The notes below the pieces were generated by a model. It was not told where the DNA came from, did not search any database, and saw only the letters and a list, made by a program, of their open reading frames with translations. Positions 781-31,520 of a DNA stretch of 64,000 nt are shown one piece after another. Numbering within the stretch: position 1 is the first letter of the stretch; each line of letters begins with the position of its first letter. Both the position numbers and the translations under genes were made by a program. Source of the stretch: a virus; the IMG/VR virus record IMGVR_UViG_3300044492_000179; one strand, given 5' to 3'.

Positions 781-1097
781 GCACGCGCACGCATCAGGCG
801 CACGCCGAACTGATCGCCAAGCTCGCGGCGGCCAAGCCCACCCGCATCATCACCGAGCGCGGCGCCGACGAAACCGACATCGCGCTGCGCGAAATGCACA
901 TCCGCGCCGTGACGGGCAACTATCTCAAATACCTCCAGGCGGTCATCGAGGACATGAACGAGCACCTCGTCGCCGGCGAGAAGGTCGACTGCGGGCAGTT
1001 CATCTCGGCCTTTGTCGATGTCGCCAGCGACTATCTCTACGCACCCATGCGCGCAGCGGCCAACGCGACCGAAGCCGAGCGGGAGTGGGTGGCATGA
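768..1097 (+). CDS. Hypothetical phage protein
   Basis: 109-aa ORF; its stop overlaps the next ATG (ATGA coupling at 1094-1097). Confidence 0.65.
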   Translation: MPRIGTRTHQAHAELIAKLAAAKPTRIITERGADETDIALREMHIRAVTGNYLKYLQAVIEDMNEHLVAGEKVDCGQFISAFVDVASDYLYAPMRAAANATEAEREWVA

Positions 1098-2026
1098 CCG
1101 TCGAGCGCATTCAAATTCAGAGCCGCGATCAGTGGCTGGCCGCGCGCAAGCAGGATGTGACCGCTTCAACTGCGGCTGGATTGCTTGGCCTGCATCCATA
1201 CGTCACCCCGTACGCGCTCCATCAATTCAAGAGCGGTGCGATTGCTGACGATACCGACGAGACACAGCCGATGCGCCGTGGAAGGCTTTTGGAGCCTGTC
1301 GCGGTTCAGATGATCCGCGAGGATTATCCCGACATCAAACTCGATGACTACCCAGTCGGGTATTACTATCGCGACCCCGAGCACCGCATCGGCGCAACAC
1401 CAGACCTGCTGGCAACGGACGCCAAAGGCCGGCTCGGTGTCGTGCAAATCAAAAATTGCGAGCCCTCAATCTTCCGCCGCGACTGGCGCGGAGAGAACGG
1501 CGGCGTCGATCCGCCACTGTGGATCGTGGTGCAAGCCCTCATCGAGGCCTACCTGACCGGCGCCGAATGGGCGGCCGTCGCGCCGATGCGCGTCAGCTTC
1601 GGTGTTGAGATCGAACTCATCCCGATCCCGCTGCACGCCGGCATCATCGACCGCATCAAGTACGAAGTCGCCGAGTTTTGGGAGCGCGTGGAGCGCGGAA
1701 CGCCGCCTGACCCAGACTATGGAAAGGATGGCGCGCTGATCGCCAAGCTTTTCCCGAAAGACGACGGCAGCGAAATCGATTTGAGCGCGGACAACATGGC
1801 CCCGCAGCTCGTTGCCGACCTCGAGCGCGCGCGCGCCGACAAGAAAGACGCCGAGACGCGCGAGAAAATCGCAAAGACGGGCATCAACGAGAAGATGGGC
1901 CCTGCCCGCTTCGCGCGCCTCGCCGACGGCCGTCGCATCTCAAACTCCACCATCGACCGTAAGGCCTACGAGGTCGCGGCCACGTCTTTCCGAATGATCA
2001 AAATATTAAACGGGAGAGCCGCATGA
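1094..2026 (+). CDS. YqaJ/lambda-exonuclease-like recombination nuclease
   Basis: WLAARKQDVTAS..LLGLHPY, MRRGRLLEP, IGATPD and VQIKN motifs of the YqaJ family. ATG at 1094 is coupled to the upstream stop. Confidence 0.85.
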   Translation: MTVERIQIQSRDQWLAARKQDVTASTAAGLLGLHPYVTPYALHQFKSGAIADDTDETQPMRRGRLLEPVAVQMIREDYPDIKLDDYPVGYYYRDPEHRIGATPDLLATDAKGRLGVVQIKNCEPSIFRRDWRGENGGVDPPLWIVVQALIEAYLTGAEWAAVAPMRVSFGVEIELIPIPLHAGIIDRIKYEVAEFWERVERGTPPDPDYGKDGALIAKLFPKDDGSEIDLSADNMAPQLVADLERARADKKDAETREKIAKTGINEKMGPARFARLADGRRISNSTIDRKAYEVAATSFRMIKILNGRAA

Positions 2027-2931
2027 ACGCGCCAATCAAGACGCCGGCGATTGGCGACAACCGGCCCGCGCTAATCACCGCCGACCAGCTGGCGAAGGAC
2101 TTCGCGCACATTGAGGCGTTCGTGGCCGGCCTTGAGGCTGCAGCGAAGGACGTTGCCCCCGTCGTTGAAGATGACGACGACCTCGCCATCATCAATGCGC
2201 TGGTGCCCAAGCTGCGCGCCGGCGCCAAGCGTTGCGACGAGGTTCGCGACCAGGAGAAGCGGCCCTACCTCGACGCCGGCACCACGGTGCAAACCTTTTT
2301 CAAGGCGCTTGAAACCCGCCTGCTCACGCTCAAGACCGATCTCGAGAGCCGCGGCGGCCGATACCTCAAGAAGAAGGCCGACGCCGAGCGCATCGCGCGC
2401 GAGGAAGAATCCCGCAAAGCCCGCGAGGAAGAAGCTCGCCAGCGCGCTGCAGCCGAAGCCGCGGAGGCCGCAGCACGGCGCGCGCGCGAAGCCGCTGAGA
2501 AGGCGGAGGCTGACCGCGCCAAGGCCGCAGCGATGGCCGATGCGAGGGCGCTGGAGAAAGCAGCACAGGCGAAGGCCGCAGCTGATGCTGAGGTCGCCGC
2601 AGCGACGGCGCGCGCGCAGGCCGAGCAGAAAGCCGCGAGCGAAGCGACGGCCCAGACCGCGGCGACAGAAAAGGCCGCGACGGCGAAGGCCGCGGATCTG
2701 GCACGTACGCACACCGCCGGCGGGACGAGCACTTTGATCGAGGCATTCGAGCCGAAGGTCGACGATTTCACCAAGGTCGATTTGCTCGCGATCCGGGCCT
2801 TCATTCGAGAAGACGAGATCATGTTGGCGCTACGCGCCTACGCGCGCGCGAACAAGGACGAGCTCAAAGCCGGCCGCGCCAAGATCAACGGCGTGACGTT
2901 CGTGCTCACCACGAAAGGAAGTTTTCGATGA
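2023..2931 (+). CDS. Coiled-coil Ala/Glu/Lys-rich phage protein in recombination cluster
   Basis: 302-aa ORF with ATGA overlaps on both sides and a long A/E/K/R helical tract. Confidence 0.7.
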   Translation: MNAPIKTPAIGDNRPALITADQLAKDFAHIEAFVAGLEAAAKDVAPVVEDDDDLAIINALVPKLRAGAKRCDEVRDQEKRPYLDAGTTVQTFFKALETRLLTLKTDLESRGGRYLKKKADAERIAREEESRKAREEEARQRAAAEAAEAAARRAREAAEKAEADRAKAAAMADARALEKAAQAKAAADAEVAAATARAQAEQKAASEATAQTAATEKAATAKAADLARTHTAGGTSTLIEAFEPKVDDFTKVDLLAIRAFIREDEIMLALRAYARANKDELKAGRAKINGVTFVLTTKGSFR

Positions 2932-3986
2932 CCACCACCGAAGTCGCAGTCCAGCAGGCTAGCAACGTCGCAGCGTTGCCGACGCGCCATCTCGTGCCAT
3001 CAACCGATCTGTTCTCCGACCCAGCGGCCTTCGAACACGCGCAGCGAGTTGCCAAGGTCTTTGCCTCGTCAAAACTCGTCCCGCAACACATGCAGGGCAA
3101 CACGGCCGACTGTCTTATTGCGCTCCAGATCGCACGCAGGCTCAATGAAGAGCCTCTGACAGTCATGCAGCAAATCTACATCGTGAACGGCCGCCCCGGT
3201 TGGTACACGAGCTACATGATCTCGCGCGTCAACCGCGCTGGGATATTAAAAGGCCCAATCACATGGGAAGAGGCGGGTGAGGGCGACGCGCTCACTGTGA
3301 CTGCAAAGGCAGTGCTCGCAGCCACTGGAGAAGAAATCCGCGCGTCTGCGGACATGCGGATGGCAGCCGCCGAGGGATGGACCAAAAACGCCAAATACAA
3401 AAGCATGCCAGCCCATATGCTGCGCTGGCGCTCGGCCGCGATGCTGATCCGCCTTTACGCCCCCGAGGTCATGCTCGGCATGCCGGCCGTCGAAGAACTC
3501 GAGACGATGCCCAAGATGCGGGACGTGACGCCTGCGAAAAACCTAGCCGATAAGCTCGACGCTCTCGCCAAAATCCCCGACAAGCCTGCCCCGGCGGAAG
3601 CGGCCGAGACGCACGACCCCGACACGGGCGAAATCACCGACGAGCAAGGTTCGCAGCAGGAAGCGCCGAACGCACCTGCGGCGGGCCAGCCGGCTTCCGA
3701 TCCTGATCCCTCCCAAAGGAAATCAGAACAACCGGGAGCCGGCGCGGCCGCTCGTGCCGAGAAAGACGACGGCCCGAAAACCGCGGCGGCTTATCTGCAA
3801 AACACCCACGCATGGATCGAAAACCTGCTCGACGCCGACGCTGGCGAGAAGCGATGGAAAGCCGAGAAGGCGCAGCGGAATAAGCTGAACGTCGATCCCG
3901 ACGACCGTGACCGGCTTGATGCCGAATTGAAGGCGAAGATCGCGGCGCTGCGCGGCGGGACAGCCAGCCAAAAGCAAGTCGTGTGA
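2928..3986 (+). CDS. RecT-like single-strand annealing protein
   Basis: AQRVAKVFASSKLVP, GNTADCLIA, IYIVNGRP and MLRWRSAAMLIRLYAPEVMLG resemble RecT/Redbeta-type annealases; lies downstream of the exonuclease. Confidence 0.7.
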   Translation: MTTTEVAVQQASNVAALPTRHLVPSTDLFSDPAAFEHAQRVAKVFASSKLVPQHMQGNTADCLIALQIARRLNEEPLTVMQQIYIVNGRPGWYTSYMISRVNRAGILKGPITWEEAGEGDALTVTAKAVLAATGEEIRASADMRMAAAEGWTKNAKYKSMPAHMLRWRSAAMLIRLYAPEVMLGMPAVEELETMPKMRDVTPAKNLADKLDALAKIPDKPAPAEAAETHDPDTGEITDEQGSQQEAPNAPAAGQPASDPDPSQRKSEQPGAGAAARAEKDDGPKTAAAYLQNTHAWIENLLDADAGEKRWKAEKAQRNKLNVDPDDRDRLDAELKAKIAALRGGTASQKQVV

Positions 3987-5899: not shown

Positions 5900-6727
5900 A
5901 TGAGGAAACTACTTGCAGCAACCACCTTGGTACTCGCCATGGCGGCACCGGCCCACGCCCACCTGATCCTGTTCGACAACCCGAACCAACCGAACTCCGG
6001 GGACGCTGTGTCCCAGTCGTTCGTCGACTTCGGGGCACAGGGCTTCGGCAACAGCCCGGCGGCACTGACCCTGCAATCCAATGGCTCCCAGATCGGCAGC
6101 GTCACGCCGAGTATCACGGGAACCGCTGTCGTTCACGATCAGGCCATCGCCGGGAGCAACAAAGCCGCAACCCCAACGCTGACCGACTTGGGTTGGCTCG
6201 GCGGCAGCGTCGTTGCCATCGGCTACAACAGCAATCAAAGCAACCAGACCGGCATTACGCTCCAGCAACTGGCGCTGACGGTCTACAGTGGAACGACGGC
6301 GCTCGCCTCGTTCAGCCTCGCCACAAACCTGATCCCGCTGCAGTTTACGGCAGCCGACCTGCAACTGCAGGAAGGCCACGGCAACGCGATCTTCGGGTTC
6401 GTGCTGGACACGCAAGAGCGCGCTCAGTTCAACGCACTCGTCGCCCTGACCGGCAGCGGTGATTTCCGGGTTGGCCTGGCCGCCAACATGGGATGCTTCG
6501 GGGCTGCGGGCAACGACCCGAATTGCCAAGTCTCGAACGACGGCGCCGACACGTTCTATCTCATCGCCCGCGGCAACCCGATCATCAACCCGACCTGCCC
6601 GGATTGCGTCATCAACCCGGTCGACGTCGTTCCCGGCCCGGTGGCCGGTGCCGGTCTGCCGGGGCTGTTCGCCGCCTGCGTCGGGCTGTGGGGCTGGCGG
6701 CGCCGCCGTCACGCGCCTGTGGCGTAG
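5900..6727 (+). CDS. Secreted protein with PEP-CTERM-like (VPGP) C-terminal sorting signal
   Basis: Signal peptide MRKLLAATTLVLAMAAPAHA; tail VPGPVAGAGLPGL + hydrophobic helix + RRRR. Confidence 0.85.
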   Translation: MRKLLAATTLVLAMAAPAHAHLILFDNPNQPNSGDAVSQSFVDFGAQGFGNSPAALTLQSNGSQIGSVTPSITGTAVVHDQAIAGSNKAATPTLTDLGWLGGSVVAIGYNSNQSNQTGITLQQLALTVYSGTTALASFSLATNLIPLQFTAADLQLQEGHGNAIFGFVLDTQERAQFNALVALTGSGDFRVGLAANMGCFGAAGNDPNCQVSNDGADTFYLIARGNPIINPTCPDCVINPVDVVPGPVAGAGLPGLFAACVGLWGWRRRRHAPVA

Positions 6728-6766
6728 TCACCTTGTCTCAGTCTCACCTCATTGGAGTTTACCTTC

Positions 6767-7462
6767 ATGAAGAAGCTGCTGCTGTTCACGACCGCTGCAC
6801 TGATCGCCACGCCGGTGGCGGCCACCGCAGACATGGCGTTGCGCCTGCAAGACGGCGCGCTCGTCCAGGATTTCTTTTCTGCGCCTGGAGCGAGTTCGTT
6901 CACCGGGCCGACCGACTTCGCGTTTGGAGATTTCACGATCTCCAACATCACGGGATCGACGACGCCGTCGACCACTGCCCCGGTGCTGTTGTCGACGAAC
7001 ACCTTGGACCTTCAGTCCACGGACATCGGATCGCACGTCCTCGACATCTTCGTCACCGGCAACAATTTGTTGTTCCCGACGGGCATCAACAACACCTTCT
7101 CGGGCTTCACCAGCGTTTCGTTGTCGGACGGCTGGACCTCGTCGTTGTCTACTTTGCTCGACACCGGCAATGGCAACTTCACCGGGTCGTTGGTTGACAG
7201 CATCGTGTTCAACGGCAACGGCATCTCGACGTTCTCCAACAACCAGACCGCCCTGGCGGACTTCGGTACTGGGCCGTACTCGATCACGGCGCACTACCAG
7301 ATCACGACCAACGGCACCGGACAGGCCAACAGCGGCATCCAGTTCGCCGCCGCGGCAGTCCCCGGCCCGGTCGTTGGCGCCGGCCTGCCCGGCCTGATCG
7401 CCGCGGGTCTGTTCATGGTCGGCCTCGCCAAACGTCGCCGCAACCGATCAGCTCAGGCCTGA
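6767..7462 (+). CDS. Secreted Ser/Thr-rich protein with PEP-CTERM-like (VPGP) sorting signal
   Basis: Signal peptide MKKLLLFTTAALIATPVAATA; tail VPGPVVGAGLPGL + TM + KRRR; RBS GGAG at 6754. Confidence 0.85.
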   Translation: MKKLLLFTTAALIATPVAATADMALRLQDGALVQDFFSAPGASSFTGPTDFAFGDFTISNITGSTTPSTTAPVLLSTNTLDLQSTDIGSHVLDIFVTGNNLLFPTGINNTFSGFTSVSLSDGWTSSLSTLLDTGNGNFTGSLVDSIVFNGNGISTFSNNQTALADFGTGPYSITAHYQITTNGTGQANSGIQFAAAAVPGPVVGAGLPGLIAAGLFMVGLAKRRRNRSAQA

Positions 7463-7560
7463 CGGGCCCTCTGCCCACTGCCCTCCCGTCAGCATGAGGG
7501 CGCGTGCGGGTCTATGTGCCGCGTCCCGCACGCGCATCATGCTCTGCTGGAGCTGCCCGC

Positions 7561-7698
7561 ATGATCGAATATGAGTTCATGACGATGGGGCAAATCCCGT
7601 TTGGCTATATCGCCGGCTTTGGGATCGTCGTGTTGGCGCTAGTGGTACTGGCCGCCTACGGGTGGCTCGTCGCGGTAGCGCGGATAATGGGATCGTGA
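7561..7698 (+). CDS. Small membrane protein (duplicated at 63098-63235)
   Basis: MIEYEFMTMGQIPFGYIAGFGIVVLALVVLAAYGWLVAV, one TM segment. Confidence 0.55.
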   Translation: MIEYEFMTMGQIPFGYIAGFGIVVLALVVLAAYGWLVAVARIMGS

Positions 7699-7847
7699 CC
7701 ACCCGTCCCGAGATCCGCGAAAAATCACCGCGCTACTGGAAGACCGGCCGCAAGCTCAGCGCCAAGCGGATCGCCGAGAACGAGCGCGCCGCAGAACTCA
7801 GCCGGTGGATCAAGGAAGAACTCGCCAGGGCCAAAACCGAGATCTAA
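7695..7847 (+). CDS. Small basic protein (duplicated at 63232-63384)
   Basis: GTG start overlapping the upstream stop; 50 aa. Confidence 0.5.
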   Translation: MTTRPEIREKSPRYWKTGRKLSAKRIAENERAAELSRWIKEELARAKTEI

Positions 7848-7861
7848 GCCGAGGAGAAAAA

Positions 7862-8923: not shown

Positions 8924-9721
8924 ATGGCTGATCCGATCAACCCGCTCGTATGCGACCTGTCGCACTGGAACATGGCTGACGACTACGAGGCTGCAAGACG
9001 AGACGGAATCGTGGGCGTGATCTACAAGGCGACCGAAGGGCAGAGCTACACCGACGACACCTATGTCGGACAGCAACAGGCCGCGAAAGCGGCTAGGCTT
9101 TGTTGGGGCTCATATCACTTCGCCGACGCTTCCGACGTTGGCGGCCAGATCGACAACTATTTGAGATTTGCCGCGCCTGATCCAGACGAACTGTTTTGCC
9201 TGGATTGGGAGGACAACCCGAGCGGCAACGGCGTGATGTCGAAAGACGATTGCAAGACCTGGATAATCGAAGTCGAGCGCGCACTGCGGCGCGAAGGCGA
9301 ATGCGTCGTGTACAGCGGCAACACCGCCAAAGAGGCATTGGATGATGATGTCGATACGTTCTTCGGGTCACGCCGGCTGTGGCTCTGCCAGTACGGCACG
9401 ACACCAAGCTGGCAGCGGTCGTGGGACAATTACTGGCTTTGGCAATTCACCGATGGCGAGTATGGGCCAGAGCCTCATTCAATCAGCGGCGTCGGCGAGT
9501 GCGACATCAACTCCTACGCCGGAAGCGCGGAGCAGTTGGTGGCTGAATGGGCCACCGGCTCAGCCGATATACTGCCGCCAGCCCCAGCCCCGCATGACCC
9601 AGTCGTGAACATCATCATCGCTGCGTCGCCGGGCGTGATCGTGAAGGTGAGGCAGACACAATTCAGTACGGCGTACCGCCAAATGCTGCCGGATCGACGC
9701 AGGGAAGCCGACGTCGAGTAA
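8924..9721 (+). CDS. GH25 muramidase (endolysin)
   Basis: DLSHWN, IYKATEG, WGSYHF, LDWED, VYSG, LWLCQY, WQFTD and DINSY are the GH25 motif series. Confidence 0.9.
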   Translation: MADPINPLVCDLSHWNMADDYEAARRDGIVGVIYKATEGQSYTDDTYVGQQQAAKAARLCWGSYHFADASDVGGQIDNYLRFAAPDPDELFCLDWEDNPSGNGVMSKDDCKTWIIEVERALRREGECVVYSGNTAKEALDDDVDTFFGSRRLWLCQYGTTPSWQRSWDNYWLWQFTDGEYGPEPHSISGVGECDINSYAGSAEQLVAEWATGSADILPPAPAPHDPVVNIIIAASPGVIVKVRQTQFSTAYRQMLPDRRREADVE

Positions 9722-20703: not shown

Positions 20704-21320
20704 GGGATGAAGGTCATGAAGTTGCCCCAGGGCGTGAGGCGGTTCATCCGCGCCTCAAGACTTGCGTTCATCTCCCCGGCGCTCTTTTTCACCAGCGCAT
20801 AGCCAACCATCTTGCTGATCTGTTCGTCGGTCTTGCGCGCGGGCGGCCCGATCAGTTGATCCTCAAGCTGGAATGCGTCGTCCTCGACCTGCCCCGATGT
20901 CGAAACCTCGCGCCGGAATTCTGGGTCGCCATACTCGACGAAGTCCATCTCGACCGTGCAATAGCCGCCCTTCTCGCGCGCCTCGGTGACGGTGTAGGAC
21001 ATCACCATGACCATCTTGTCTGTCATCTCGAATGGCAGCGGAAGCCGCAGCAGGCCGGGGCCGTCCTTCTCAAGCGCGTCGATCAGCCGGTTTTTCTGGT
21101 CCCAGTAATTCGGCCCGATAAGGTAGCCCTGCACGAGAAAGCGCAGAGCTTTGTGCCCCATATCCTCGGCGTATGGCGTGTTGCGCTTCGGGTATTCGTG
21201 CACTGCCACGCGCCGCCCGCCCTGCTGCGCATCGCTCTCGACGAAGAACTGCACGTTGCGGAACGCCGCCTCCTGATAGCGCTTGCGCCACGGGTTCGGG
21301 ACCTTGTCCTTGATGCTCAT
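20700..21320 (-). CDS. DNA circularisation N-terminal domain protein (Mu gpN-like)
   Basis: AAFRNVQFFV...GGRRVAVHEYPKRNTPYAEDMG. Confidence 0.85.
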   Translation of the reverse strand: MSIKDKVPNPWRKRYQEAAFRNVQFFVESDAQQGGRRVAVHEYPKRNTPYAEDMGHKALRFLVQGYLIGPNYWDQKNRLIDALEKDGPGLLRLPLPFEMTDKMVMVMSYTVTEAREKGGYCTVEMDFVEYGDPEFRREVSTSGQVEDDAFQLEDQLIGPPARKTDEQISKMVGYALVKKSAGEMNASLEARMNRLTPWGNFMTFIP

Positions 21321-23683
21321 ATGCTCAGCGTCTCCCCGGCGTCCTCGGTGCGCTGCATCTGCTTGTGCTGTCGCACCGTCGTGCCTTGGTAGAGGTCGCC
21401 CGCCTCGTTGACCTTGGCGTCGGCCTTGGTGCCGTTGGAATTGACCGTGACGTTGACGTTGCCGTTGACCGACGGCGGCCTGATCGCACCGTTGATGCGG
21501 TTCATCTCGCGCTGCCGGGTTTTCAGTATGGTCGCCGCCCATGACGGGTCGGTGCTGTTGTAGCCGCCCTTAACCAAGTTACGCATCGTCTCTTCCGGCG
21601 TGTCGCCGTAGCGACCACCCCAGCGCTTGGCGTGGTCCTCGAAGCCCTCGGCCAAAGAGCCGTAGACCTTGTGCTTCTGACCGTCCGCGCCGATGATGAA
21701 GCCCTGCGAACCGACGCCGGTCTGCCCGAACGGGTTGGTGCCACCGGAGCGATCGAAAATGCCGCCCTTACCGCGCTGCATGTTGCCGCTCTCGTGCATT
21801 GCGATGGCAGCAGCCGTGTCAGGGTCTTTGATGCCAGCCGCGACCGCCGCCGCGCGCGCCTTCATGAATGGCGTCTGCTGACCATTCGGGGCCGTCCCAC
21901 CGCTGTTCTTGATCAGCGCCTCCCGCGCCGCCTCGGCACTGCGAATGCCAAAGTGGCCCTGATCATTGCTCTTCCACTTGTTGCCCGAGACGAGGCCCCA
22001 CTTTTCTGCGAGCTCGTCCTCCATTCCGGGGGCCAGTGATCTCCCGGTCCCGCCGCGAATTCCGCGCCCGACCTGATTGATGTCGATGGCGGCACCAATC
22101 GGATGTCCCGATGCGTTGTGAGGGCGAGAGCCAAGCGTGCCGGTGGCCGAACCCAGCGTGCCGCCAGCCCCCTCGTAGTCGTTGATGAACCCTTGGAAGT
22201 TCTGCGCGAACCGCTCATCGACCTGAAACTTCTTGCCGCTGGGGGAGGTGACGGTCGCCAGCCCGCTGCGCGCGATCGCGGTGCCAGCAGGAGCCGTGAT
22301 GCCTGCAGGGCCGCCTTGCGAGCCGCCGCCAACACCTTGGCCGTTAGGGTTGCCGGTTGTCGTACCGGGCGGCCCCGATGGCCCGGTCCCCGACGGGCCG
22401 GTGCCGCCCGTGGATGCCGCGCGGAAAGCTCGTCCAATCGGGGTGTTGTCCCCCGTGCCGCCGGGGCTGTAGGAGGCGTTGGTGAAGCCGTTTCCGCCAC
22501 CCAGGCTGCCCCTGCTGCCGCCCGAGAACTCCACCAGGGCGTCGTACACGCCGGTTTGCACGATGCGCGATGCCCCGCTGCTCTCGCCGCCGTCGTCGCC
22601 AAAGCCGCCGAACGAAATTGGACTGAAGCCACGGGCGCGGCGCGCGGCGCGCTTCTCCTGCAGCGTCGGCGGCGGCGGCGCGCTTGGGGGGAGGTCACCT
22701 GACTGAGCCTTCCAGCCAAACGGGTCCCATTTGTCCATGCCGGTGAGTCTGTTGATCCACCCGACGGCTGCTCCCATCGGATCGGAGGCTGCGCCCTTGC
22801 CGCCGTCCCCCTTGCCAGCCGTCTTGTCGATCCAATTGTCGATCCACGTCAGCCCACTGATGATCTTGTCGATGTCTTCGAGATCGCGGCCGATCATCGG
22901 CATGATGCGCACGCCGATCTTGGCCTTGAGCAAATCGAAGTTCTCGCCCATGTCGACGAGCATGCCGTTGAATTTTACGGCAGTGGCAATCTCATCGTCG
23001 GTAAACACCTTCTTCGTCTTGTACGTTTCGTAGAACTGCTCCCACGACAGCCGCGCCACGCCCGCACCCAGTTGGATCTTGTCGAAGAACCGTCTGCCCT
23101 TTTCTCCTGACGGGTCCTCCTTATCGAGCGCCCCCTTGAAGCTGAACGCCTGCTTAAGGGCATCCAGCATGTCGGTTGAATTCTTCACCCGGTTGACGAA
23201 GTCGCCTGCGCCCATCGCGTATAGCTCGCCGCGCAGCGAGCCGATCCGCATCTTGAAATCGTCCACATTGCTCTTGAAGCCAGCGAGGCCCGCCATCATG
23301 GCCTCAGGCGCCATGCCTGCCTTCTGCGCCTCGGACGTGAAAGCGCGCAGCGCCTGTTCGCTCAGCCCCAGCTCCTTGCTGGCGTACTTCATCTGGACGA
23401 TCTTGGATGAGATGTCGCCCAGCGTGCCGGTCAGCGTGCGGGCGGCAACCCCGACGCCAGCCGCGCCCAAGCCGAATGCCCCCAGCGACGGCACCGCCGA
23501 CTTCAGCTCGCTGCCGACGCCCTTGATGGTCTTGCCGAGCGCGCTGAAGCTGCTGTCGACCTGCTGAACGCCCTTGCCTGCCCGTACCGGCACCGCGCCG
23601 ATCTCACGGCCGATCGCGCGGATGTTCGCCAGCGCCTCCTCGCTGACGACGGTCGCGCGTAATCGAAGGACGTCATCGGGCAT
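21317..23683 (-). CDS. Tape measure protein with putative peptidoglycan-hydrolase domains
   Basis: Helical N-terminal half after the tail chaperone genes; C-terminal SGHPIGAAID...WGL...DQGHF (M15 peptidase-like) and HESG...NPFG...YGSLAEGFEDH (glucosaminidase/lysozyme-like). Confidence 0.75.
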   Translation of the reverse strand: MPDDVLRLRATVVSEEALANIRAIGREIGAVPVRAGKGVQQVDSSFSALGKTIKGVGSELKSAVPSLGAFGLGAAGVGVAARTLTGTLGDISSKIVQMKYASKELGLSEQALRAFTSEAQKAGMAPEAMMAGLAGFKSNVDDFKMRIGSLRGELYAMGAGDFVNRVKNSTDMLDALKQAFSFKGALDKEDPSGEKGRRFFDKIQLGAGVARLSWEQFYETYKTKKVFTDDEIATAVKFNGMLVDMGENFDLLKAKIGVRIMPMIGRDLEDIDKIISGLTWIDNWIDKTAGKGDGGKGAASDPMGAAVGWINRLTGMDKWDPFGWKAQSGDLPPSAPPPPTLQEKRAARRARGFSPISFGGFGDDGGESSGASRIVQTGVYDALVEFSGGSRGSLGGGNGFTNASYSPGGTGDNTPIGRAFRAASTGGTGPSGTGPSGPPGTTTGNPNGQGVGGGSQGGPAGITAPAGTAIARSGLATVTSPSGKKFQVDERFAQNFQGFINDYEGAGGTLGSATGTLGSRPHNASGHPIGAAIDINQVGRGIRGGTGRSLAPGMEDELAEKWGLVSGNKWKSNDQGHFGIRSAEAAREALIKNSGGTAPNGQQTPFMKARAAAVAAGIKDPDTAAAIAMHESGNMQRGKGGIFDRSGGTNPFGQTGVGSQGFIIGADGQKHKVYGSLAEGFEDHAKRWGGRYGDTPEETMRNLVKGGYNSTDPSWAATILKTRQREMNRINGAIRPPSVNGNVNVTVNSNGTKADAKVNEAGDLYQGTTVRQHKQMQRTEDAGETLSI

Positions 23684-23692
23684 GGCCGTGGC

Positions 23693-23866
23693 TCAGTGCG
23701 ATCGCGTCGTCTCTGCAATGGCGAGTAATCTGTCGGTCCACTCCATGTGCTGCTCGACCTCATCGAGCGGCATCGCGAGAAATTCCGCCGGGGAACAGGA
23801 ATAGACTCGCGCCAGCCGATAGCAGTTCAGTACTGCATCGCCTGGACGCCCGGCGGGAAAAAACCC
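23693..23866 (-). CDS. -1 frameshift extension of the tail assembly chaperone (gpGT/GpE'-like)
   Basis: -1 frame after the slippery site reads FPAGRPGDAVLNCYRLARVYSCSPAEFLAMPL and ends just before the tape measure gene. Confidence 0.75.
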   Translation of the reverse strand, partial: GFFPAGRPGDAVLNCYRLARVYSCSPAEFLAMPLDEVEQHMEWTDRLLAIAETTRSH

Positions 23867-24177
23867 ATGAGCGCATGGGCGCAGGTCGACCAGTCCTCGC
23901 TGTCGAGCGCCTTGATGGTGGAGGGCGGCACCGCCGCCAGCGTGGACATCATAGCGCCCATGACCTCTGGGTTCGGTGCAATCCTCCCGGTCTGCCAATC
24001 GATGACGATCGGATAGCCGTTGCCCATCGCCATGATGTCGCCTCCGGTCGGCCTGCGGAACACCAGCTTCTTCACCATCTCCCCGTTCGCTTGCACGGGC
24101 GTGGTCAGGTCGATGACGATCTCTTTCGGGCGCTTCAGCTCGACTACGTCCGCCGCCTTGACTGCCGCTTCCGCCAT
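23827..24177 (-). CDS. Tail assembly chaperone
   Basis: IDLTTPV....KKLVFRRPTGGDI...IKALDSEDW; between tube and tape measure. Confidence 0.85.
   Translation of the reverse strand: MAEAAVKAADVVELKRPKEIVIDLTTPVQANGEMVKKLVFRRPTGGDIMAMGNGYPIVIDWQTGRIAPNPEVMGAMMSTLAAVPPSTIKALDSEDWSTCAHALMGFFPPGVQAMQY
23857..23866 (-). other. Programmed -1 frameshift slippery sequence GGGTTTTTTC
   Basis: Zero-frame ATG GGT TTT TTC gives X XXY YYZ heptamers (G GGT TTT and T TTT TTC) near the chaperone 3' end, with an open -1 frame downstream. Confidence 0.75.
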
Positions 24178-24187
24178 TGCGTGCTCC

Positions 24188-24556
24188 CTACGACGTCAGC
24201 TCGTCGCCATCGACGCCTTCGAACCTGATCCGAAACTGGCCGTCGTGCGTGTTGATCTCGACCGGCCCTTTGACCCACGCATTGCGCAGCACGTAGGTGT
24301 GCCCATTCACCAGCTCGGCGGTGACGGTGGCATCGGTGATGCTTTCCAGGAACTCGGTGCTGACCTCGGGCAAGGTTGAGAGATCGCCCTCGATGTACGG
24401 CACGCGCGGCAGCTCCTGGTAGCCGTGCACGTAATCCTGACCGGCGATGCCGGTGCGCTCGACCTGCGTGATCGAGACGGTGAGGCTGCCCTTGAGCGGA
24501 AACATCGCTCCGTCAACCTTCAGATATGCGGTGCCGGCGATAGGTCCTTGCGGCAT
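24188..24556 (-). CDS. Tail tube protein (Mu gpM-like)
   Basis: IAGTAYLKVDG...GYQELPRVPYIEG...ATVTAELVNG. Confidence 0.85.
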   Translation of the reverse strand: MPQGPIAGTAYLKVDGAMFPLKGSLTVSITQVERTGIAGQDYVHGYQELPRVPYIEGDLSTLPEVSTEFLESITDATVTAELVNGHTYVLRNAWVKGPVEINTHDGQFRIRFEGVDGDELTS

Positions 24557-24872
24557 GCAAGCCTCCATGATTAAAGGGGCATGCATCCGTAGAGGTCTAA
24601 CTGAGAGGGGGCAGGCGAAACGCGCCTACCCTCTTTTTTATTGCGATCTTAATAGCAGCCAAGTTTTCAAATGAAAGTCGTCCAAGGTCGTGCAAATGCT
24701 TTCCGTTGGTTGGAGATACCTTTCTCCAAACTCGCCCAGGTAGTTAGTGCGACTTCCGGGTTGTAATGAAGCGTTGCGTGAGCTGTCGACCGCGATAACC
24801 CGCTCCCGCCACGATCGAATACAGCCCTGTGTAGGTCCCGACATCGATGGCGACCAGACCGGGCGCGCGCGA

Positions 24873-25502
24873 TCACTGCCACGCCTCTTGCACCCACGGC
24901 GGCTTGTGGGTCCCTCCGCAATTGATGACCGCCGAGTGCTTCGGTGGGTGAATTGTCAGGTCGCGGTAATTGCAGAAAAAATCCCGTGGCATCAGGGCTT
25001 GCAGGAACAGTGCGTTGGGATACAGAAGCTCAATGGCCTTCTGGTCGCCGTAGCGCCCCGACCGCTCAATGTACCAGTCGCGACGGTGGTCGAAGCGCGA
25101 CCAGATGAACCCGCACTGGCCGCCGCCGATCACCATGACGCTGCTACTGTATTTGCAGGCGCCGACGGCACCCTGGTTCGCCAAAATGCTGAACTCGCCA
25201 ACCGCATCCGCAAGTGGTGTAATGTCGTTGATGAGAATGTTGTCGAGATCGAGATAAACTACTTTTGATCGGCCGCGCCACTCGGGAGCGAACAAAATCA
25301 TTTTAGCCCAGCAGCTCTTGAGCCCGATCTCCTCGATGTCGATGAAGGTCACGTCATCGCAACGCTCCCTCTGGTCGGTCAGGCAGACCAGTTCATAGGG
25401 GCGCTGCATGTGGCGCGCGACCATGTTGCGCATCTTGGTGACGTGGCCAAAGTCGAAGGCGGTTCCGGTGCGGACACACGCGACAATGACATCGCCGATC
25501 AT
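24873..25502 (-). CDS. Glycosyltransferase-like protein (GT-A, DxD)
   Basis: VTKMRNMVARHM..PYELVCLTD, WAKMILF, VVYLDLD, YSSSVM, GDQ, HKP pattern of GT8-like enzymes. Confidence 0.75.
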   Translation of the reverse strand: MIGDVIVACVRTGTAFDFGHVTKMRNMVARHMQRPYELVCLTDQRERCDDVTFIDIEEIGLKSCWAKMILFAPEWRGRSKVVYLDLDNILINDITPLADAVGEFSILANQGAVGACKYSSSVMVIGGGQCGFIWSRFDHRRDWYIERSGRYGDQKAIELLYPNALFLQALMPRDFFCNYRDLTIHPPKHSAVINCGGTHKPPWVQEAWQ

Positions 25503-26203
25503 TTTTTCAGCATTGCCACGCCGTCATCGAGCGTGACCTTCTGAAAACAGCGAATTGCCGATGCTGGACAGGCATTCGCAATGTGAACGCCACGCTTGTT
25601 GAGGTGCGGGACGTAGACTTCGAAGTGGCTTGCCCAGACCTTCCAGTTCTCGTGATTCTGTGCCCGCTTCTTGTCATGCTGCTGGTTGTCTTGAAAGGAA
25701 CCGTCATAGTCGTAGCCGAACAAGATGATGCGCTTGGCCTGCTTGTGCAGGCAGATTTGCAGTGCACCGAACCCGCTGGTGCCGCCGCCATAGATCGCGC
25801 TTGGATCTTCAGACACCGCCTGACCCACCAGCCGCTTGACGAAGGTGACGTTGCGCGATGGCGGCGCAGCACCTGTCTTGGTGAGCTGGTCCTCGGGGAC
25901 AGCCCAGTAGACACGCGCCGGCACGTCGGCGAGCTTGTCGCGCCATTCGGCATAGCGCTCCATGTCGAGACCGAACCCGGCGTCCGCCCATGGGATGTCG
26001 AAGATCGACCCCTTGACCGCAAGGATGGTCGCGCCCCGCAGCCTTTCGAAGTCGAAGCCGACGAGTGAAGGCCCATCGGCGACGATCGCGACCGGCTGCT
26101 TGTCCCAGTACGGCGATCCCACCTTGCCGTAGGTATCATTCGCGTCGAAATCCGCATCTGGCGGTGCCGTGACCATGCGCCGGTTGACTCGTCCTGTCGT
26201 CAT
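25499..26203 (-). CDS. Glycosyltransferase/DUF115-like Rossmann-fold protein
   Basis: VAIVADGPSL, ILAVK, GGGTSGFGALQI, KRIILFGYD motif series seen in sugar-transfer-related phage proteins; exact activity unknown. Confidence 0.6.
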   Translation of the reverse strand: MTTGRVNRRMVTAPPDADFDANDTYGKVGSPYWDKQPVAIVADGPSLVGFDFERLRGATILAVKGSIFDIPWADAGFGLDMERYAEWRDKLADVPARVYWAVPEDQLTKTGAAPPSRNVTFVKRLVGQAVSEDPSAIYGGGTSGFGALQICLHKQAKRIILFGYDYDGSFQDNQQHDKKRAQNHENWKVWASHFEVYVPHLNKRGVHIANACPASAIRCFQKVTLDDGVAMLKK

Positions 26204-26223
26204 CGTCCGCCTCGGAGCTTTAT

Positions 26224-26802
26224 TCAGGCTGAAATCCGCTTCGAGGCGTTGCGCCGCCGGTTGAGACCTAACAGCGCGAAAGCCGCGGCAAGCAGCCCCG
26301 GCAACCCTGCACCAGCAATTGGTCCCGGAACTCCAGAGACCGACAGATTGCCGCCGTAGCCCGCAAGCGCGCCAGCATTACCCTGAATCTGCAGATAGTA
26401 GTGGCCGGCATTGAGCAACCCACTACCGTTGAGTTCCTGGCTCAAGCCATCTGCACTGATGGTCGCAAACTGGGGCCCGAACTTCAGTTCATCGCCGTTA
26501 CCGATGGTGCCATCAGGGTCAAGAAAGATCGCCGCAGCGAAATTCTGAATGCCGAAGGGGCCGGTGACGCCGCCAATGGCGAACGTGTTGGTCGCCGATG
26601 CCACGGTAACGAACGTCGGACCACCAACAAGATCAAACGTGTACTGGTCTTGAAACAACCCACCTACGAGCGGGCCATTTGGGTCGTTCGAGAACGCACC
26701 GGCAGCCGAGGTCGGATTGACTCCGAACGTGCCGATGATGGCAGCTTTGCTCGACGCCGGCATGGCCAGCACAATCGCGAACGCAAGTAAACATGCCCTC
26801 AT
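26224..26802 (-). CDS. Secreted protein with PEP-CTERM-like (VPGP) sorting signal
   Basis: Signal peptide MRACLLAFAIVLAMPASSKA; tail VPGPIAGAGLPGL + TM + RRR. Confidence 0.85.
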   Translation of the reverse strand: MRACLLAFAIVLAMPASSKAAIIGTFGVNPTSAAGAFSNDPNGPLVGGLFQDQYTFDLVGGPTFVTVASATNTFAIGGVTGPFGIQNFAAAIFLDPDGTIGNGDELKFGPQFATISADGLSQELNGSGLLNAGHYYLQIQGNAGALAGYGGNLSVSGVPGPIAGAGLPGLLAAAFALLGLNRRRNASKRISA

Positions 26803-26907
26803 GGTTGGGACTCCCTCTGTTTTTGTTGATGATCGTCTAAAGTTCTGGATGCGCCGCCCGAAAGCGGGTGCATCCAGGCTCGGCCTCGAGCAGCGCGCCG
26901 GGGTCGC

Positions 26908-27444
26908 TTATTTGGGTGAGGCCGCGTCCGGCCCTGGGAAATACCCCCAACCAACACTCGGAGCATAGGCCCAGCCGCCCGTCTCGGGTGGCGGCTTGAT
27001 CGCCTCGCCGTCAGGCGGCGGCGGCGGCAACGGCGGCACCACGATGGGATGCGTGGGATGCCCCGGATTCGGCCAAATCGTGACCGGCGGTCCGCCTTCC
27101 TGATAGGGCGGCAGCACGATCGGGTTGGTCGGGAACGGCCCTCCCTGCGACGGGCCACCACCAGGCGCGATCGGGTGCGACGGATAACCAGGGTACCAAG
27201 GCAAGCCTTGATCCGGATACGACGGCGCACCACCCCAGATGCCGGGTGGGCGGCCCGGCAGGCCCTGGTCGGGATATGGCATGTTGCCGCCACCCCAAAT
27301 GCCGGGCGGCTGACCTCCTCCGGGCGCGATCGGGTGCGCCGGATGCCCAGGGCTCGGCCAGATACCAGGCGGTGGCTCCGCAATCGGATGGGTCGGCACG
27401 CCGCCGTCGGTCAGCGGCGTAATCATCGCAAGAAATGGTCGCAT
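26908..27444 (-). CDS. Pro/Gly-rich repeat protein (PxHPI, PPGIW, YPDQGLP repeats)
   Basis: 178-aa ORF with RBS AGGAG, in operon orientation directly after the sheath gene. Confidence 0.75.
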   Translation of the reverse strand: MRPFLAMITPLTDGGVPTHPIAEPPPGIWPSPGHPAHPIAPGGGQPPGIWGGGNMPYPDQGLPGRPPGIWGGAPSYPDQGLPWYPGYPSHPIAPGGGPSQGGPFPTNPIVLPPYQEGGPPVTIWPNPGHPTHPIVVPPLPPPPPDGEAIKPPPETGGWAYAPSVGWGYFPGPDAASPK

Positions 27445-27502
27445 TTACTGTTTCTCCTTCGGTTGCAGTTCTCGCGGCGGATGATCACCAGTCTCTGGTG
27501 TG

Positions 27503-29041
27503 CTAAATCGCAATTGCTGTATCGATCCCTCTATCATATTGGAGACGGAACTGCGCCAGCACCGCGAAGATGCGGAGTTGGTTGATGAGGTCGGGCGGAT
27601 ACAGCACATCGATCCGGTTTGGATCGTTGGCGTTGCGCTCCACGATCAGGTTTTTCTTGAAGGCCTGCGCGTTCTCGACCCGGCCCAGGAACTCGTCGGC
27701 CCGGTACTGCGCGACCAATTCCGCCTTGATGATCTTCGGCGTCACGATGGCTTGCCCTGCCCCGAACCGCGTTCCGTCGTCCGCCAGCTTGTGACGCGGG
27801 TATTTGCTGGTGATGACGAAACGCTGCGAGCGGAACAATGCCGCCAGCGTGGCCAGCGTCGGCACCAACTCGTAGGCGTCGTCGCCCTGGCCGTAGAGGT
27901 TCTTCTGGTAGGTGGTGCTCTCCCGCATGATCGCCGGGATGCCGTCGTCGTTCACCGACTGTGTGGCGATTCCGACGCCAGCAAGTTGGTTGCATTGCGC
28001 CTTTGTGAAGCGCTGATGCTTTGGCGCGGGCAGGCATCCCTCCATTGCAAGCGTCTGCAGCGGTCGCGCCGGGTCGTTGAGCAGCGCGCGCGCGGCCTTG
28101 GCCGTGTAGGCCGCGGCCCAGTTCCACGAAGGAGTCGGCGAGGTGTCCTCCACCCCCATGATCGAAAGCACGCCGGAATTGTTGTTCGGGCCATACTGAA
28201 GGAGCGTTGCGACATCTCCCTTGTAGGCGCCGAACACATGTCCGTAGAGCTGCCGCATCCAACCCCAGCGACCAGTGTCGGAGAAGCCATATTCGGCCTC
28301 CAACTGCGTCAGCGAGGTGCTGTCGGAGAAGCCGGTGGCGACGTATTCGTAGATCTCGTCGCCCAGGTTGACGATGGCCTGCGTGAGATCGACGGTGCCG
28401 GTTCCGCCCGCCAGTTTGTTGTCGACGGGCATCGTGATAGTGAGGCCGACCGGCACGCGCTCCGCTGCGAGCGCCCCGCCATAGGCCAGCCGCACGTCGA
28501 TCTCGTTGCCTTCCACGCCCTTCCACTTCGCGGTCAGCGTGATGTCGGGACTGTCGGCCGGCGTCGTGGTAGCGATCACCGGCATCGACGGGTCCGCGTT
28601 GATGGCGACGGCGATCTTGCCGCCAACAACGGCGATAGCCTCACCGGCCGCGATGCTGACCTGCACTCGGCGTCCGGCGATGTAGACCGGCAGCGTGCCT
28701 GCGGCGGTCGCCGGCGCCGTCACCGTCATGGACGCGGTGGCGGCAACGCCAGCCGTCGCCTCGGCGATGGGGACTACCCACAGCTCCTGCGCAAAATTAT
28801 TGCGAGTGAATGACTCAACCATGCCGTCGAGCATCGAGCCGTAGCCGAACAGCAGGCGGGCGTCGGCCTGCGACGGCACCGGCACCGGCACGTTTGGAAT
28901 TGCGCTGCCGTCCGCGGTCATGGTTCCGATGATGAGCGAGGTCAGCCGCGACCGGGGATAGCCTGCCATCGAGGGATCTACTTCCACCCAGTATAAGGGC
29001 ATCCGCCAATTCGCGGGGATGCTGTTAAACGACACGGGCAT
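27503..29041 (-). CDS. Contractile tail sheath protein (Mu gpL-like)
   Basis: FNSIPANWRMPLYWVE, DPARPLQTL, YPRHKLADDG, DLINQLRIFA. Confidence 0.95.
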   Translation of the reverse strand: MPVSFNSIPANWRMPLYWVEVDPSMAGYPRSRLTSLIIGTMTADGSAIPNVPVPVPSQADARLLFGYGSMLDGMVESFTRNNFAQELWVVPIAEATAGVAATASMTVTAPATAAGTLPVYIAGRRVQVSIAAGEAIAVVGGKIAVAINADPSMPVIATTTPADSPDITLTAKWKGVEGNEIDVRLAYGGALAAERVPVGLTITMPVDNKLAGGTGTVDLTQAIVNLGDEIYEYVATGFSDSTSLTQLEAEYGFSDTGRWGWMRQLYGHVFGAYKGDVATLLQYGPNNNSGVLSIMGVEDTSPTPSWNWAAAYTAKAARALLNDPARPLQTLAMEGCLPAPKHQRFTKAQCNQLAGVGIATQSVNDDGIPAIMRESTTYQKNLYGQGDDAYELVPTLATLAALFRSQRFVITSKYPRHKLADDGTRFGAGQAIVTPKIIKAELVAQYRADEFLGRVENAQAFKKNLIVERNANDPNRIDVLYPPDLINQLRIFAVLAQFRLQYDRGIDTAIAI

Positions 29042-30116: not shown

Positions 30117-30470
30117 TCAGGGAGTTGAGATTGCTATTGCCAGTTTGCAGTCGACTTTTTGCAGCGTTGGTCTATCGCGCGTGCCGGACCGCAGCTTGAT
30201 GAAGCCGACGGTGCGCGCCCACGTCCTGTCGATCACGATGCCTTGGTTTGCCCGCGCCACGACGACGATTTCTTTTCCTTCGTCATCGAACATATCGTTA
30301 TAGCCATTGCCGTCCGACGATACCTGGAACGACATTTGATTCGGCATATCGCCGTCGTTGTACTCCTGGGGCACGGTGATGCGGACGATGGTTCCAGCCG
30401 AACAATCAGCTCCATCCGAAAGGCTTTCTCCCGCGTGGATGGTTGGACCGTCGATAATAACAAGCGGCAT
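30117..30470 (-). CDS. Hypothetical head-region protein
   Basis: 117-aa ORF between capsid and head-tail joining genes. Confidence 0.6.
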   Translation of the reverse strand: MPLVIIDGPTIHAGESLSDGADCSAGTIVRITVPQEYNDGDMPNQMSFQVSSDGNGYNDMFDDEGKEIVVVARANQGIVIDRTWARTVGFIKLRSGTRDRPTLQKVDCKLAIAISTP

Positions 30471-30506: not shown

Positions 30507-31520
30507 TCAGGTGTGTGTGCCCTTTAGCAGCGCGAGCGGACGCGAGCAGAAGTTGAGGGCATTCATCTGCGTGTCCATGTGGACGCCTTTGTCATTCGGC
30601 ATCTGGTACTGTTTGACGTAGCGCGGCAGGCCCATCGTGTTCACGGTCTCGATGTAGTCGGCTGGCGCATAGACCGTGGGGAACAGGTTCGGCACGCCTG
30701 TGGGATAAAAGTAGGCAGCGTCGGTCTCGATGATCGGCACCCCTTGCGCATAGCCGCGATAATTGGTCCACAGGATGCCGCCGAACACGAACGAGCCCCA
30801 GGTCTGACCTCCGCTGATGTAAGCGCTGCGCAATTCGGCAGCGTCCTGCGTTTGGAGGTATGTCGAGCGCACCTCGGCGCATGCGATCAGTGCATCGAAG
30901 AACGCATCGCCAACGATTGCCTCAACGCCGGTAAAGCCCTGACCATCAAGATTGGTGCCCATGGTGCGGATGACCTGCGCGCATATCTGGCGAATGTTCC
31001 CGGTTGCCGGCGCCGTGCTGAATGGGAAGTTGATCGCCGCTGGCGGGGTTATGCCGTACTCGTTGAACAAATTGAGCGTCGTGCCATCGGCATAGGTGAC
31101 GATGCCCTTGATCGCACCAGCGCGAGCGTATTCCTGCGTATATTCCAGCGACTGTCCGGCAATTTGCATTCGCTCACCGACTTTCGTCATCACTGCTTCG
31201 GTGCCTGTTTCCTGTCCGAAGGGGCGAACGCCCTGGACTTCTTCGGCCATGATGGCGTCGTTGATCTCGAAGTGCGGGACCGCGAGCATGCGCAGGGCGC
31301 GGCGTGGCTTCGGCATCGTGTGGCCGGGAGCGCCGCGCGGCGTCGGCGCGATCAGCATCAAGATGTTGTTGTTTTCCTCGATCGACACCGCCGTGGTCGC
31401 AACGCTGATCTCGTTGAAGATGCCCCTGCTGCTGATAAAGCCGGGTTTGAATTTCAGATTGTTGATTGCGATTGAAAGCGGCACCACGCCATAGGCATCG
31501 CCGCGAAAGATGTCGAGCAT
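30507..31520 (-). CDS. Major capsid protein (lambda gpE family)
   Basis: PHFEINDAIMAEEVQGVRPFG, TQEYARAGAIKG, YAPADYIETVNTMGLP, SRPLAL. Confidence 0.9.
   Translation of the reverse strand: MLDIFRGDAYGVVPLSIAINNLKFKPGFISSRGIFNEISVATTAVSIEENNNILMLIAPTPRGAPGHTMPKPRRALRMLAVPHFEINDAIMAEEVQGVRPFGQETGTEAVMTKVGERMQIAGQSLEYTQEYARAGAIKGIVTYADGTTLNLFNEYGITPPAAINFPFSTAPATGNIRQICAQVIRTMGTNLDGQGFTGVEAIVGDAFFDALIACAEVRSTYLQTQDAAELRSAYISGGQTWGSFVFGGILWTNYRGYAQGVPIIETDAAYFYPTGVPNLFPTVYAPADYIETVNTMGLPRYVKQYQMPNDKGVHMDTQMNALNFCSRPLALLKGTHT

Follow-up and report, generated by a model that had tools for sequence, protein, structure and literature searches.

The tail sheath and tail tube genes on the minus strand of the IMG/VR virus record IMGVR_UViG_3300044492_000179 (a DNA stretch of 64,000 nucleotides, hereafter the window) are separated by four co-oriented genes, named PRO, PEP, GT3 and GT4. 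The initial annotation had described this arrangement, and all four open reading frames (ORFs) were confirmed at their coordinates. Comparison with related loci showed that the interval consists of two unrelated modules. Module A contains the glycosyltransferase-like genes GT3 and GT4 and a dead relic of an FkbM-type methyltransferase gene; module B contains PRO and PEP. Module A is what remains, in reduced form, of a glycan-assembly cassette that is passed on by vertical inheritance and defines a clade of temperate phages whose contractile tails are of the Mu type. It may well be a cytoplasmic pathway, expressed late, for the glycosylation of a virion or other phage protein. The genes of the interval, its boundaries and the nearby late structural genes are listed below, with protein lengths in amino acids (aa).

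26908..27444, minus strand: PRO, 178 aa, Pro/Gly-rich repeat protein, predicted disordered; gene 1 of the inserted mobile pair
26224..26802, minus strand: PEP, 192 aa, predicted secreted protein of the FxDxF-family PEP-CTERM type; gene 2 of the inserted pair
25499..26203, minus strand: GT3, 234 aa, putative single-domain transferase with an MptE-like/Maf/WaaZ/CstII fold; clade-defining core gene
24873..25502, minus strand: GT4, 209 aa, GT8-like retaining GT-A glycosyltransferase with a DxD motif
24673..24884, minus strand: FkbM-type methyltransferase relic, frameshifted and truncated; takes in the ORF 24638-24844 (orf68)
27503..29041, minus strand: tail sheath (PF04984/PF17482/PF17481; phrog_165, E 2.8e-166); upstream boundary of the cassette
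24188..24556, minus strand: tail tube (PF10618, E 2.1e-33); downstream boundary of the cassette
30507-31520, minus strand: capsid, late structural operon; upstream of the sheath, with two small or medium-sized genes in between
23827-24177, minus strand: tail assembly chaperone, late structural operon, past the tube
21317-23683, minus strand: tape measure, late structural operon

Distribution and phylogeny of the transferase cassette

The IMG/VR database was searched with GT3, and 36 loci were identified, all of which contain the sheath, GT3, further genes and the tube in this order. A search with the tube protein, which is unbiased as to the transferases, gave 80 loci; after the removal of duplicates, 56 loci had both the sheath and the tube. 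The genes found between the two were as follows.

GT3 and GT4: 20 loci
GT3, x240, x332, GT4 and FkbM: 10 loci
GT3 only: 9 loci
Nothing: 17 loci

GT3 lies between the sheath and the tube in 39 of the 56 loci, and GT4 accompanies it in 30 of these 39. All loci with a tube at least 72% identical carry GT3 (37 of 37), and so do 2 of the 19 more distant loci. In the maximum-likelihood tree of the sheath, one branch parts 42 cassette-bearing rows from 15 cassette-less rows (support 100/100). A single gain or loss suffices for the cassette distribution. GT3 was never lost within the clade, and the other enzymes come and go. This pattern fits an enzyme that acts on the primary acceptor, rather than one that caps a chain built by others.

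The sheath and tube genes had been taken as normally adjacent, and comparison with relatives bears this out. In 17 more distant relatives the two genes are usually 56-350 bp apart, with two exceptions of 739 and 1211 bp; they are adjacent in Citrobacter phage phiNP. The sheath of the window is 74-96% identical to those of the cassette-bearing relatives. Alignment with the relatives placed the start of the tube at M11 (position 24556), which gives a protein of about 121 aa, and neither the start nor the length differs between cassette-bearing and cassette-less relatives. When cultured-phage DNA was searched with the stretch, the matches were confined to the sheath. The sheath itself also varies: near residue 43 (window ~28910), most cassette-less relatives have an extra insertion of about 90 residues, which is missing from the cassette-bearing clade, and the same region of the clade has clade-specific conserved Ser residues at 31, 35 and 46.

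The two transferase genes travel together inside the late structural operon, as had been proposed. They also occur together at a different place in phiNP, where GT3-like and GT4-like genes are adjacent and located between the lysis genes and terS. The relatives' hosts range from Bradyrhizobium to a Casimicrobiaceae metagenome-assembled genome (MAG), and a related prophage with the full five-gene cassette is present in the cultured Bradyrhizobium sp. BRP22, at about 365-382 kb of NZ_JADYVX010000003.1. An independent case of a sialyltransferase-like gene and a methyltransferase gene within a structural operon is found in Pseudomonas phage PAJU2, a D3-like siphovirus (L039, 7780-9723): ORF010 (phrog_4603, annotated as 'structural protein'), ORF011 (unknown) and ORF012 (methyltransferase) have the head-tail adaptor on one side and the tail genes on the other.

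The 316-bp spacer ahead of the tube gene is not empty, and contains the frameshifted FkbM relic. A tblastn search of the window with the FkbM protein of locus L002 matched residues 44-70 at 24884-24804 (63% identity, E 2.7e-5), and residues 95-148 in a second frame at 24834-24673 (E 3.1e-5). The five-gene cassettes have an intact FkbM gene (PF05050, E 4.9e-12) at the position of the relic, and their order is GT3, x240, x332, GT4, FkbM. The x240 protein is GT8-like, and x332 is a transferase of the GT4 family. An earlier assignment of x240 (240 aa) and x332 (332 aa) as NeuA/NeuB-like was dropped, as both are transferase-like. The deepest cassette-bearing branch (L030-L032) also has the long form. 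Because the two-frame relic lies between GT4 and the tube, the cassette of the window lineage has shrunk from a longer one. In L002, an HNH endonuclease with an AP2 domain (6647-7150) is located between GT3 and the next transferase, which resembles a homing-endonuclease-type invasion of the module.

Sequence and structural analysis of GT3 and GT4

The details first read from the sequence, namely the GPSL/FGYD and DxD motifs, the ATGA overlap of GT3 and GT4, the VPGP tail and the Pro/Gly repeats, are all present. The reading of the last two genes as glycosyltransferase-like was upheld by structure prediction and Foldseek searches, which gave transferase folds with conserved motifs.

GT3 matches phrog_4603, annotated as alpha-2,3-sialyltransferase (E 7.6e-19). 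In an alignment of 39 homologs, the GPSL and FGYDYDG motifs sit in nearly invariant columns, and there are about 30 invariant residues, mainly polar or Gly. The model built from these homologs has a predicted local distance difference test (pLDDT) score of 88.8. Residues 1-35 are disordered, and the remainder forms one domain, a catalytic domain of about 210 residues. The top ranks of the Foldseek search against the PDB were the Maf flagellin glycosyltransferase, the CstII sialyltransferases and the MptE pyrophosphokinase. The fold agrees with the catalytic domain of the Maf family (PF01973), while the flanking substrate-binding domains of Maf are missing. A precomputed PF01973 match exists for about 10 of 120 GT3 homologs. 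The WaaZ model TIGR04437 is matched weakly by 7 of the 39 GT3 relatives (best E 0.011), and almost no other family is matched. The hhalign probability between GT3 and WaaZ is 5.5%, which indicates motif-level similarity. Pfam gave no match of GT3 to the CstII family, and a PDB sequence search with the GT3 profile found nothing relevant. GT3 is best described, on its modelled fold, as a single-domain relative of the sialyltransferase/Maf/WaaZ superfamily, which is like these families rather than a filed member of any.

The characterised glycosyltransferases of this superfamily (sialyltransferases, Maf and WaaZ) use keto-sugar acids activated by cytidine monophosphate (CMP) as donors, such as sialic acid, pseudaminic acid, legionaminic acid and 3-deoxy-D-manno-oct-2-ulosonic acid (Kdo). 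The GT3 donor might therefore be a CMP-activated keto-sugar acid. The nucleotide-binding loop, the most conserved one, is changed in both the window and its closest relative L001. At residue 43 (position 26075) the window GT3 reads ADGPSL, where more than 90% of the relatives have GGGPSL; the L001 protein has GGHSL at residue 45. The ratio of nonsynonymous to synonymous substitutions (dN/dS) between the two is 0.18. A complex prediction of the sheath with GT3 (residues 20-234) gave a score of 0.01, which carries no weight either way.

GT4 matches phrog_1962, annotated as glycosyltransferase (E 6.5e-16). Its model (pLDDT 94) has a GT-A fold, and the Foldseek matches include glycogenin, GlyE, LgtC and LARGE1 (E ~1e-8; template modelling (TM) scores 0.6-0.7). 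The DxD motif is D85-L-D87, at least 90% conserved in 44 sequences; the NSSVMVIG motif is nearly invariant, and a G-x-x-KP motif is also conserved. No Pfam family, PF01501 included, matched GT4 at E up to 1, and it passes no NCBIfam cut-off. It is therefore termed 'GT8-like', and not a filed member of that family. The hhalign probability between GT4 and WaaJ is 13%, again similarity at the motif level.

Selection and probable late expression

The dN/dS values are mostly 0.15-0.2 for GT3 and mostly 0.25-0.5 for GT4, compared with 0.04-0.18 for the sheath and 0-0.13 for the tube. Both transferases are under purifying selection and are maintained, with GT4 the faster-evolving of the two. The fixation of the cassette between the main tail genes throughout the clade, together with this selection, argues for a function tied to particle production, and not for an accidental passenger.

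In roughly half of the loci, 13-80 bp separate the sheath from GT3. At four-fold-degenerate sites, the sheath 3' end gave 1.34 bits against 1.23 elsewhere, with no drop in synonymous diversity. A scan of the minus strand within the cassette, which covered the sigma-70 consensus only for promoters, found no promoter-like or terminator-like site. The short spacers, the synonymous-site result and the consensus scan point to co-transcription of the cassette with the late operon. The stretch was matched in none of the RNA runs. In L001 (5950-6000), the sheath-to-GT3 spacer is a perfect GC-rich hairpin with an 11-bp stem, a 5-nt loop and no T run; in the window this hairpin is replaced by a 1.25-kb insertion. 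The plus strand of the window, upstream of the tail genes, encodes a GH25 lysozyme, a YqaJ-like exonuclease and a RecT-like gene (8924-9721, 731-3986), which are ordinary phage functions.

The PRO and PEP pair

PRO and PEP form a mobile pair of moron genes that is independent of the transferases; its insertion between sheath and GT3 is confined to this phage. Compared with L001, the window has a clean 1.25-kb insertion that contains exactly PRO and PEP and extends from directly past the sheath stop codon to the ribosome-binding site of GT3. L001 is otherwise very close to the window (capsid 97%, sheath 96%, GT3 94% and tube 100% identity). The GC content at third codon positions is 0.65 for PEP and 0.71 for PRO, and 0.75-0.84 for the neighbours (sheath 0.82). 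In the unrelated phage L108, a PEP homolog of 84% identity has a PRO homolog directly upstream (65% over the full length); the two therefore move as a pair. The L108 pair adjoins the lysogeny module, with no transferase nearby. Insertion relative to a close relative, foreign composition and occurrence elsewhere are the features tested for a moron, and all three were observed. Since the pair is a separate insertion and recurs in an unrelated phage without a transferase, the transferases cannot depend on PRO or PEP as a substrate, and the suggestion that the Pro-rich or the surface-sorted protein is the one glycosylated is not supported. On the minus strand of PRO and PEP, no sigma-70-type or intrinsic-terminator match was found; PEP is preceded by a hairpin and a strong Shine-Dalgarno sequence, GAGGGAG.

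PRO consists of 29% Pro and 18% Gly, and has ordered repeats with the motifs HPI[AV], PPGIW and YPDQGLP. Its 127 representative homologs are disordered repeat proteins, some of them in unrelated contexts. The Atlas model has a pLDDT of 0.47, and an Atlas search with PRO gave no usable match. In 12 of the 39 loci, a gap of 350 bp or more between sheath and GT3 is taken up by Pro-rich genes, which are only 34-46% identical to PRO. The PEP gene is absent from about 100 related loci.

The PEP protein has a signal peptide and a variant C-terminal tail, VPGPIAGAGLPGL, followed by a hydrophobic stretch and RRR; these features are conserved in the alignment, and the tail reads VPGP and not VPEP. The FxDxF PEP-CTERM model NF038126 scores PEP at 46 bits, below the cut-off of 50, and its homologs P0204 (72.5 bits) and P0201 (65 bits) pass. 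PEP thus appears to belong to this family by homology. TIGR02595 and PF07589 do not match PEP, and no curated sorting-domain model recognises its tail. All 87 PEP homologs are metagenomic, and the contexts looked up were phage or prophage in 5 of 5 cases. Their positions vary: some lie past the lysis and tail genes beside the repressor and integrase, and others lie between the terminase and the portal. The tail has three forms within the family (VPEP..W, TPLPAAAWLFGSGL and VPGP..GAGLPGL), as would be expected of a functional sorting signal adapted to the host. The PEP product is predicted to be a secreted surface protein sorted by its C-terminus. The exosortase family PF09721 had no match in Bradyrhizobium BRP22, the host of a relative without the PEP gene. 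With the PEP family profile, no match was obtained in BRP22 or in the Casimicrobiaceae MAG, and there was one tail-only match among 301 genomes of the order to which BRP22 belongs.

Similar tails occur elsewhere. Two adjacent secreted-protein genes on the plus strand of the window, 5900-6727 and 6767-7462, have signal peptides beginning MRKLLAATT and MKKLLLFTT, and their products end in a PEP-like VPGPV.GAGLPGL tail with a hydrophobic stretch and RRRR. No NCBIfam family matches either product. The window contains three proteins with this uncatalogued VPGP..GAGLPGL..RRR tail. In L113, the gene directly upstream of the PEP homolog (7088-7849) carries the same sorting tail; in L112, the corresponding gene (7468-7851) is a homolog of a small structural-operon gene of the window (30117-30470).

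Possible targets of the glycan

In the proposed pathway, the first step would fall to GT3, which would take a CMP-activated keto-sugar acid, either Kdo or a sugar of the pseudaminic/legionaminic type, from the pool of the host and attach it to the primary acceptor. GT4 would next add an alpha-linked hexose from a uridine diphosphate (UDP)-sugar. In relatives with the full cassette, two further transferases and the methyltransferase might lengthen and cap the chain. The most likely acceptor would be an abundant protein of the virion whose synthesis coincides with that of the enzymes, with the exposed sheath as the first candidate, and the outcome would be a glycosylated virion of the mycobacteriophage kind. 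Several findings are consistent with a virion target. Across the whole clade, the cassette keeps its place between the genes for the two most abundant tail subunits. GT3 and GT4 are soluble by their sequences, with no signal peptide or membrane segment, and no lipid-carrier, flippase, membrane-partner or sugar-nucleotide/donor-synthesis gene was found with the cassette among the relatives' cassettes and the window ORFs scanned. The closest solved structure to GT3, Maf, is a protein glycosyltransferase for the subunit of a helical filament. The phrog_4603 gene of PAJU2, annotated as structural, lies with a methyltransferase gene among the head-tail genes. Phage XacN1, which carries a GT3 homolog, has been shown to have virion glycoproteins. 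A further precedent is the glycosylation of mycobacteriophage capsid and tube proteins, as cited in PMC12619734.

Other observations weigh against virion glycosylation or against the family placement behind it. GT3 is below the cut-offs of PF01973 (18.7 vs 34.6 bits) and of the WaaZ model TIGR04437 (11.5 vs 200 bits). The CstII catalytic-His region (HND.HY) is kept in many relatives, and it is deleted in the window GT3 and several others; the window GT3 also has an Asp directly before GPSL, at a position where more than 90% of the relatives have Gly. A C-terminal extension like that of mycobacteriophages is absent from the tube, as judged from relatives with and without the cassette, and the six clade-specific Ser/Thr residues of the sheath (31, 35, 46, 214, 301 and 346) are too weak a signal to name a site. 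The best reviewed (Swiss-Prot) structural matches are lipopolysaccharide (LPS) enzymes: WaaZ of E. coli and Salmonella for GT3 (E 4.3e-7, TM 0.59), and WaaJ for GT4 (E 1.5e-8, TM 0.71), with WbnI also matched. A set of keto-acid transferase, GT8, GT4-family and methyltransferase enzymes would also fit LPS assembly.

These matches raise the main alternative, possible though rather doubtful, in which the host envelope is remodelled. GT3 would act like WaaZ and add a Kdo-type sugar to the inner-core Kdo region of LPS, and GT4 would act on the core like WaaJ or LgtC; the surface would be altered late in infection or in lysogens, which would block the adsorption of progeny or rival phages. The weak TIGR04437 matches among the GT3 relatives agree with this, as does the weak match of the FkbM relative to the RfbT O-antigen methyltransferase family. 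Every Gram-negative host has both CMP-Kdo and Kdo2-lipid A as an acceptor, which would explain the missing donor-synthesis gene and why GT3 alone may suffice. The phiNP pair occupies a usual moron site between the lysis genes and terS, and the enzyme set resembles a small waa operon. However, the known serotype-converting genes of temperate phages have a patchy distribution and are active in lysogens; the cassette keeps one position throughout the clade, closely packed between the two late genes with the highest expression, and has no conserved promoter sign. The outer cores also differ between the Bradyrhizobium and Casimicrobiaceae hosts, although the inner Kdo region does not, and the sequence similarity to WaaZ and WaaJ goes no deeper than motifs, as the hhalign probabilities above indicate.

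The remaining explanations are less compatible with the data. The initial annotation had treated the four genes as one system, in which the transferases glycosylate the Pro-rich or the PEP-CTERM-sorted protein. In its favour, the four genes of the window lie side by side in one orientation, there is a general association between PEP-CTERM proteins and exopolysaccharide loci, and Pro-rich genes fill the sheath-GT3 slot in part of the relatives. Nevertheless, the synteny analysis showed independent assortment (GT3 universal, GT4 in 30 of 39 loci, Pro-rich genes in 12 of 39, PEP in none), and in 27 of the 39 cassettes the space is too small for a Pro-rich gene. The closest relative has neither PRO nor PEP, and the pair recurs in L108 away from any transferase. 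The signal peptide of PEP would lead to its export, but the transferases lack both such a peptide and any membrane segment. The integrated system is therefore largely refuted by synteny and quite improbable. It is also unlikely that GT3 is not a glycosyltransferase at all, being instead an MptE-type nucleotide-dependent (pyro)phosphokinase or a non-catalytic virion or assembly protein. The 'structural protein' annotation of the PAJU2 homolog and the failure to reach any curated cut-off would agree with such a role, but GT3 is always accompanied or followed by clear glycosyltransferases and a sugar-type methyltransferase, and its invariant, mostly polar or Gly residues suggest catalysis. Glycosylation of phage DNA against restriction seems very improbable. 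Phage glycosyltransferases often modify DNA, as cited in PMC12619734; however, only DNA methylases, and no hydroxymethylase or other base-modifying gene, were seen among the window ORFs scanned, which makes this role unlikely, and the fold types and the structural-operon location are unlike those of T4-type enzymes.

Biological implications

It is conceivable, if somewhat doubtful in its full extent, that all members of this clade, temperate contractile-tailed phages of soil Proteobacteria, glycosylate the tail or another protein of their own virions, and that phages also supply cargo for an exosortase-like system of the host. If so, a minimal keto-sugar-acid transferase with the Maf/WaaZ fold would start the pathway, and the variable downstream enzymes would give virion 'glycotypes'. 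Virion glycosylation is documented in mycobacteriophages, where it shields the particles from antibodies; to our knowledge, it is almost unexplored in phages of Gram-negative bacteria, and this would be the first such system there. The cultured Bradyrhizobium strain has a related prophage with the five-gene cassette, so the choice between virion and LPS is open to a bench test. Either outcome would be useful, as a new class of phage particle modification or as a new late-expressed strategy of receptor remodelling. The recurrent phage-borne PEP-CTERM-type proteins are a second lead, which bears on how prophages might alter the surface of soil bacteria.

The stretch 24188-29041, including the PRO-PEP insertion, is near-identical in 24 metagenome runs from soil and freshwater sediment (2018 and 2025; 16 studies), and 15 of the runs may be the source of this DNA. 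This spread indicates that either the phage or its lysogen is cosmopolitan, or a common contaminant organism carries the stretch.

Comparison with known systems

In the literature searched, which was incomplete, no description was found of transferases between the sheath and the tube, or of phage-encoded PEP-CTERM proteins. The nearest systems are similar in parts. PEP is 52-80% identical to proteins that pass the cut-off of the FxDxF PEP-CTERM family (NF038126), and shares their signal peptide and three-part C-terminal tail; its own tail reads VPGP..GAGLPGL, and its branch was phage-borne in the five contexts looked up.

Among the enzymes, Maf of Magnetospirillum magneticum (PDB 5mu5; PF01973) shares the fold of the catalytic domain, but GT3 does not have the Maf flanking domains and is 13% identical. 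The Campylobacter CstII/GT42 enzymes (phrog_4603) differ in the catalytic-His region, which is unconserved and partly deleted in GT3. WaaZ (a KdoIII transferase) and WaaJ (a GT8 LPS alpha-1,2-glucosyltransferase) are likewise single-domain and soluble or peripheral proteins. The enterobacterial waa operon also combines a keto-acid transferase and a GT8 enzyme in one operon, as in the phage. However, WaaZ and WaaJ are encoded by chromosomal housekeeping genes, and not in a phage late operon.

The virion glycosylation of mycobacteriophages (Freeman et al. 2023, as cited in PMC12619734) has transferases tied to the structural genes, as is found here. According to the same text, abundant subunits of the virion receive the glycan in the course of assembly, which resembles the system proposed here from its genes. 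The mycobacteriophage acceptors named there are C-terminal extensions of the capsid and tail tube proteins, in siphoviruses of Actinobacteria; the tube of the window has no such extension. The phages of the present clade also differ in their contractile tails, their Gram-negative hosts and a lead enzyme with a sialyltransferase-like fold.

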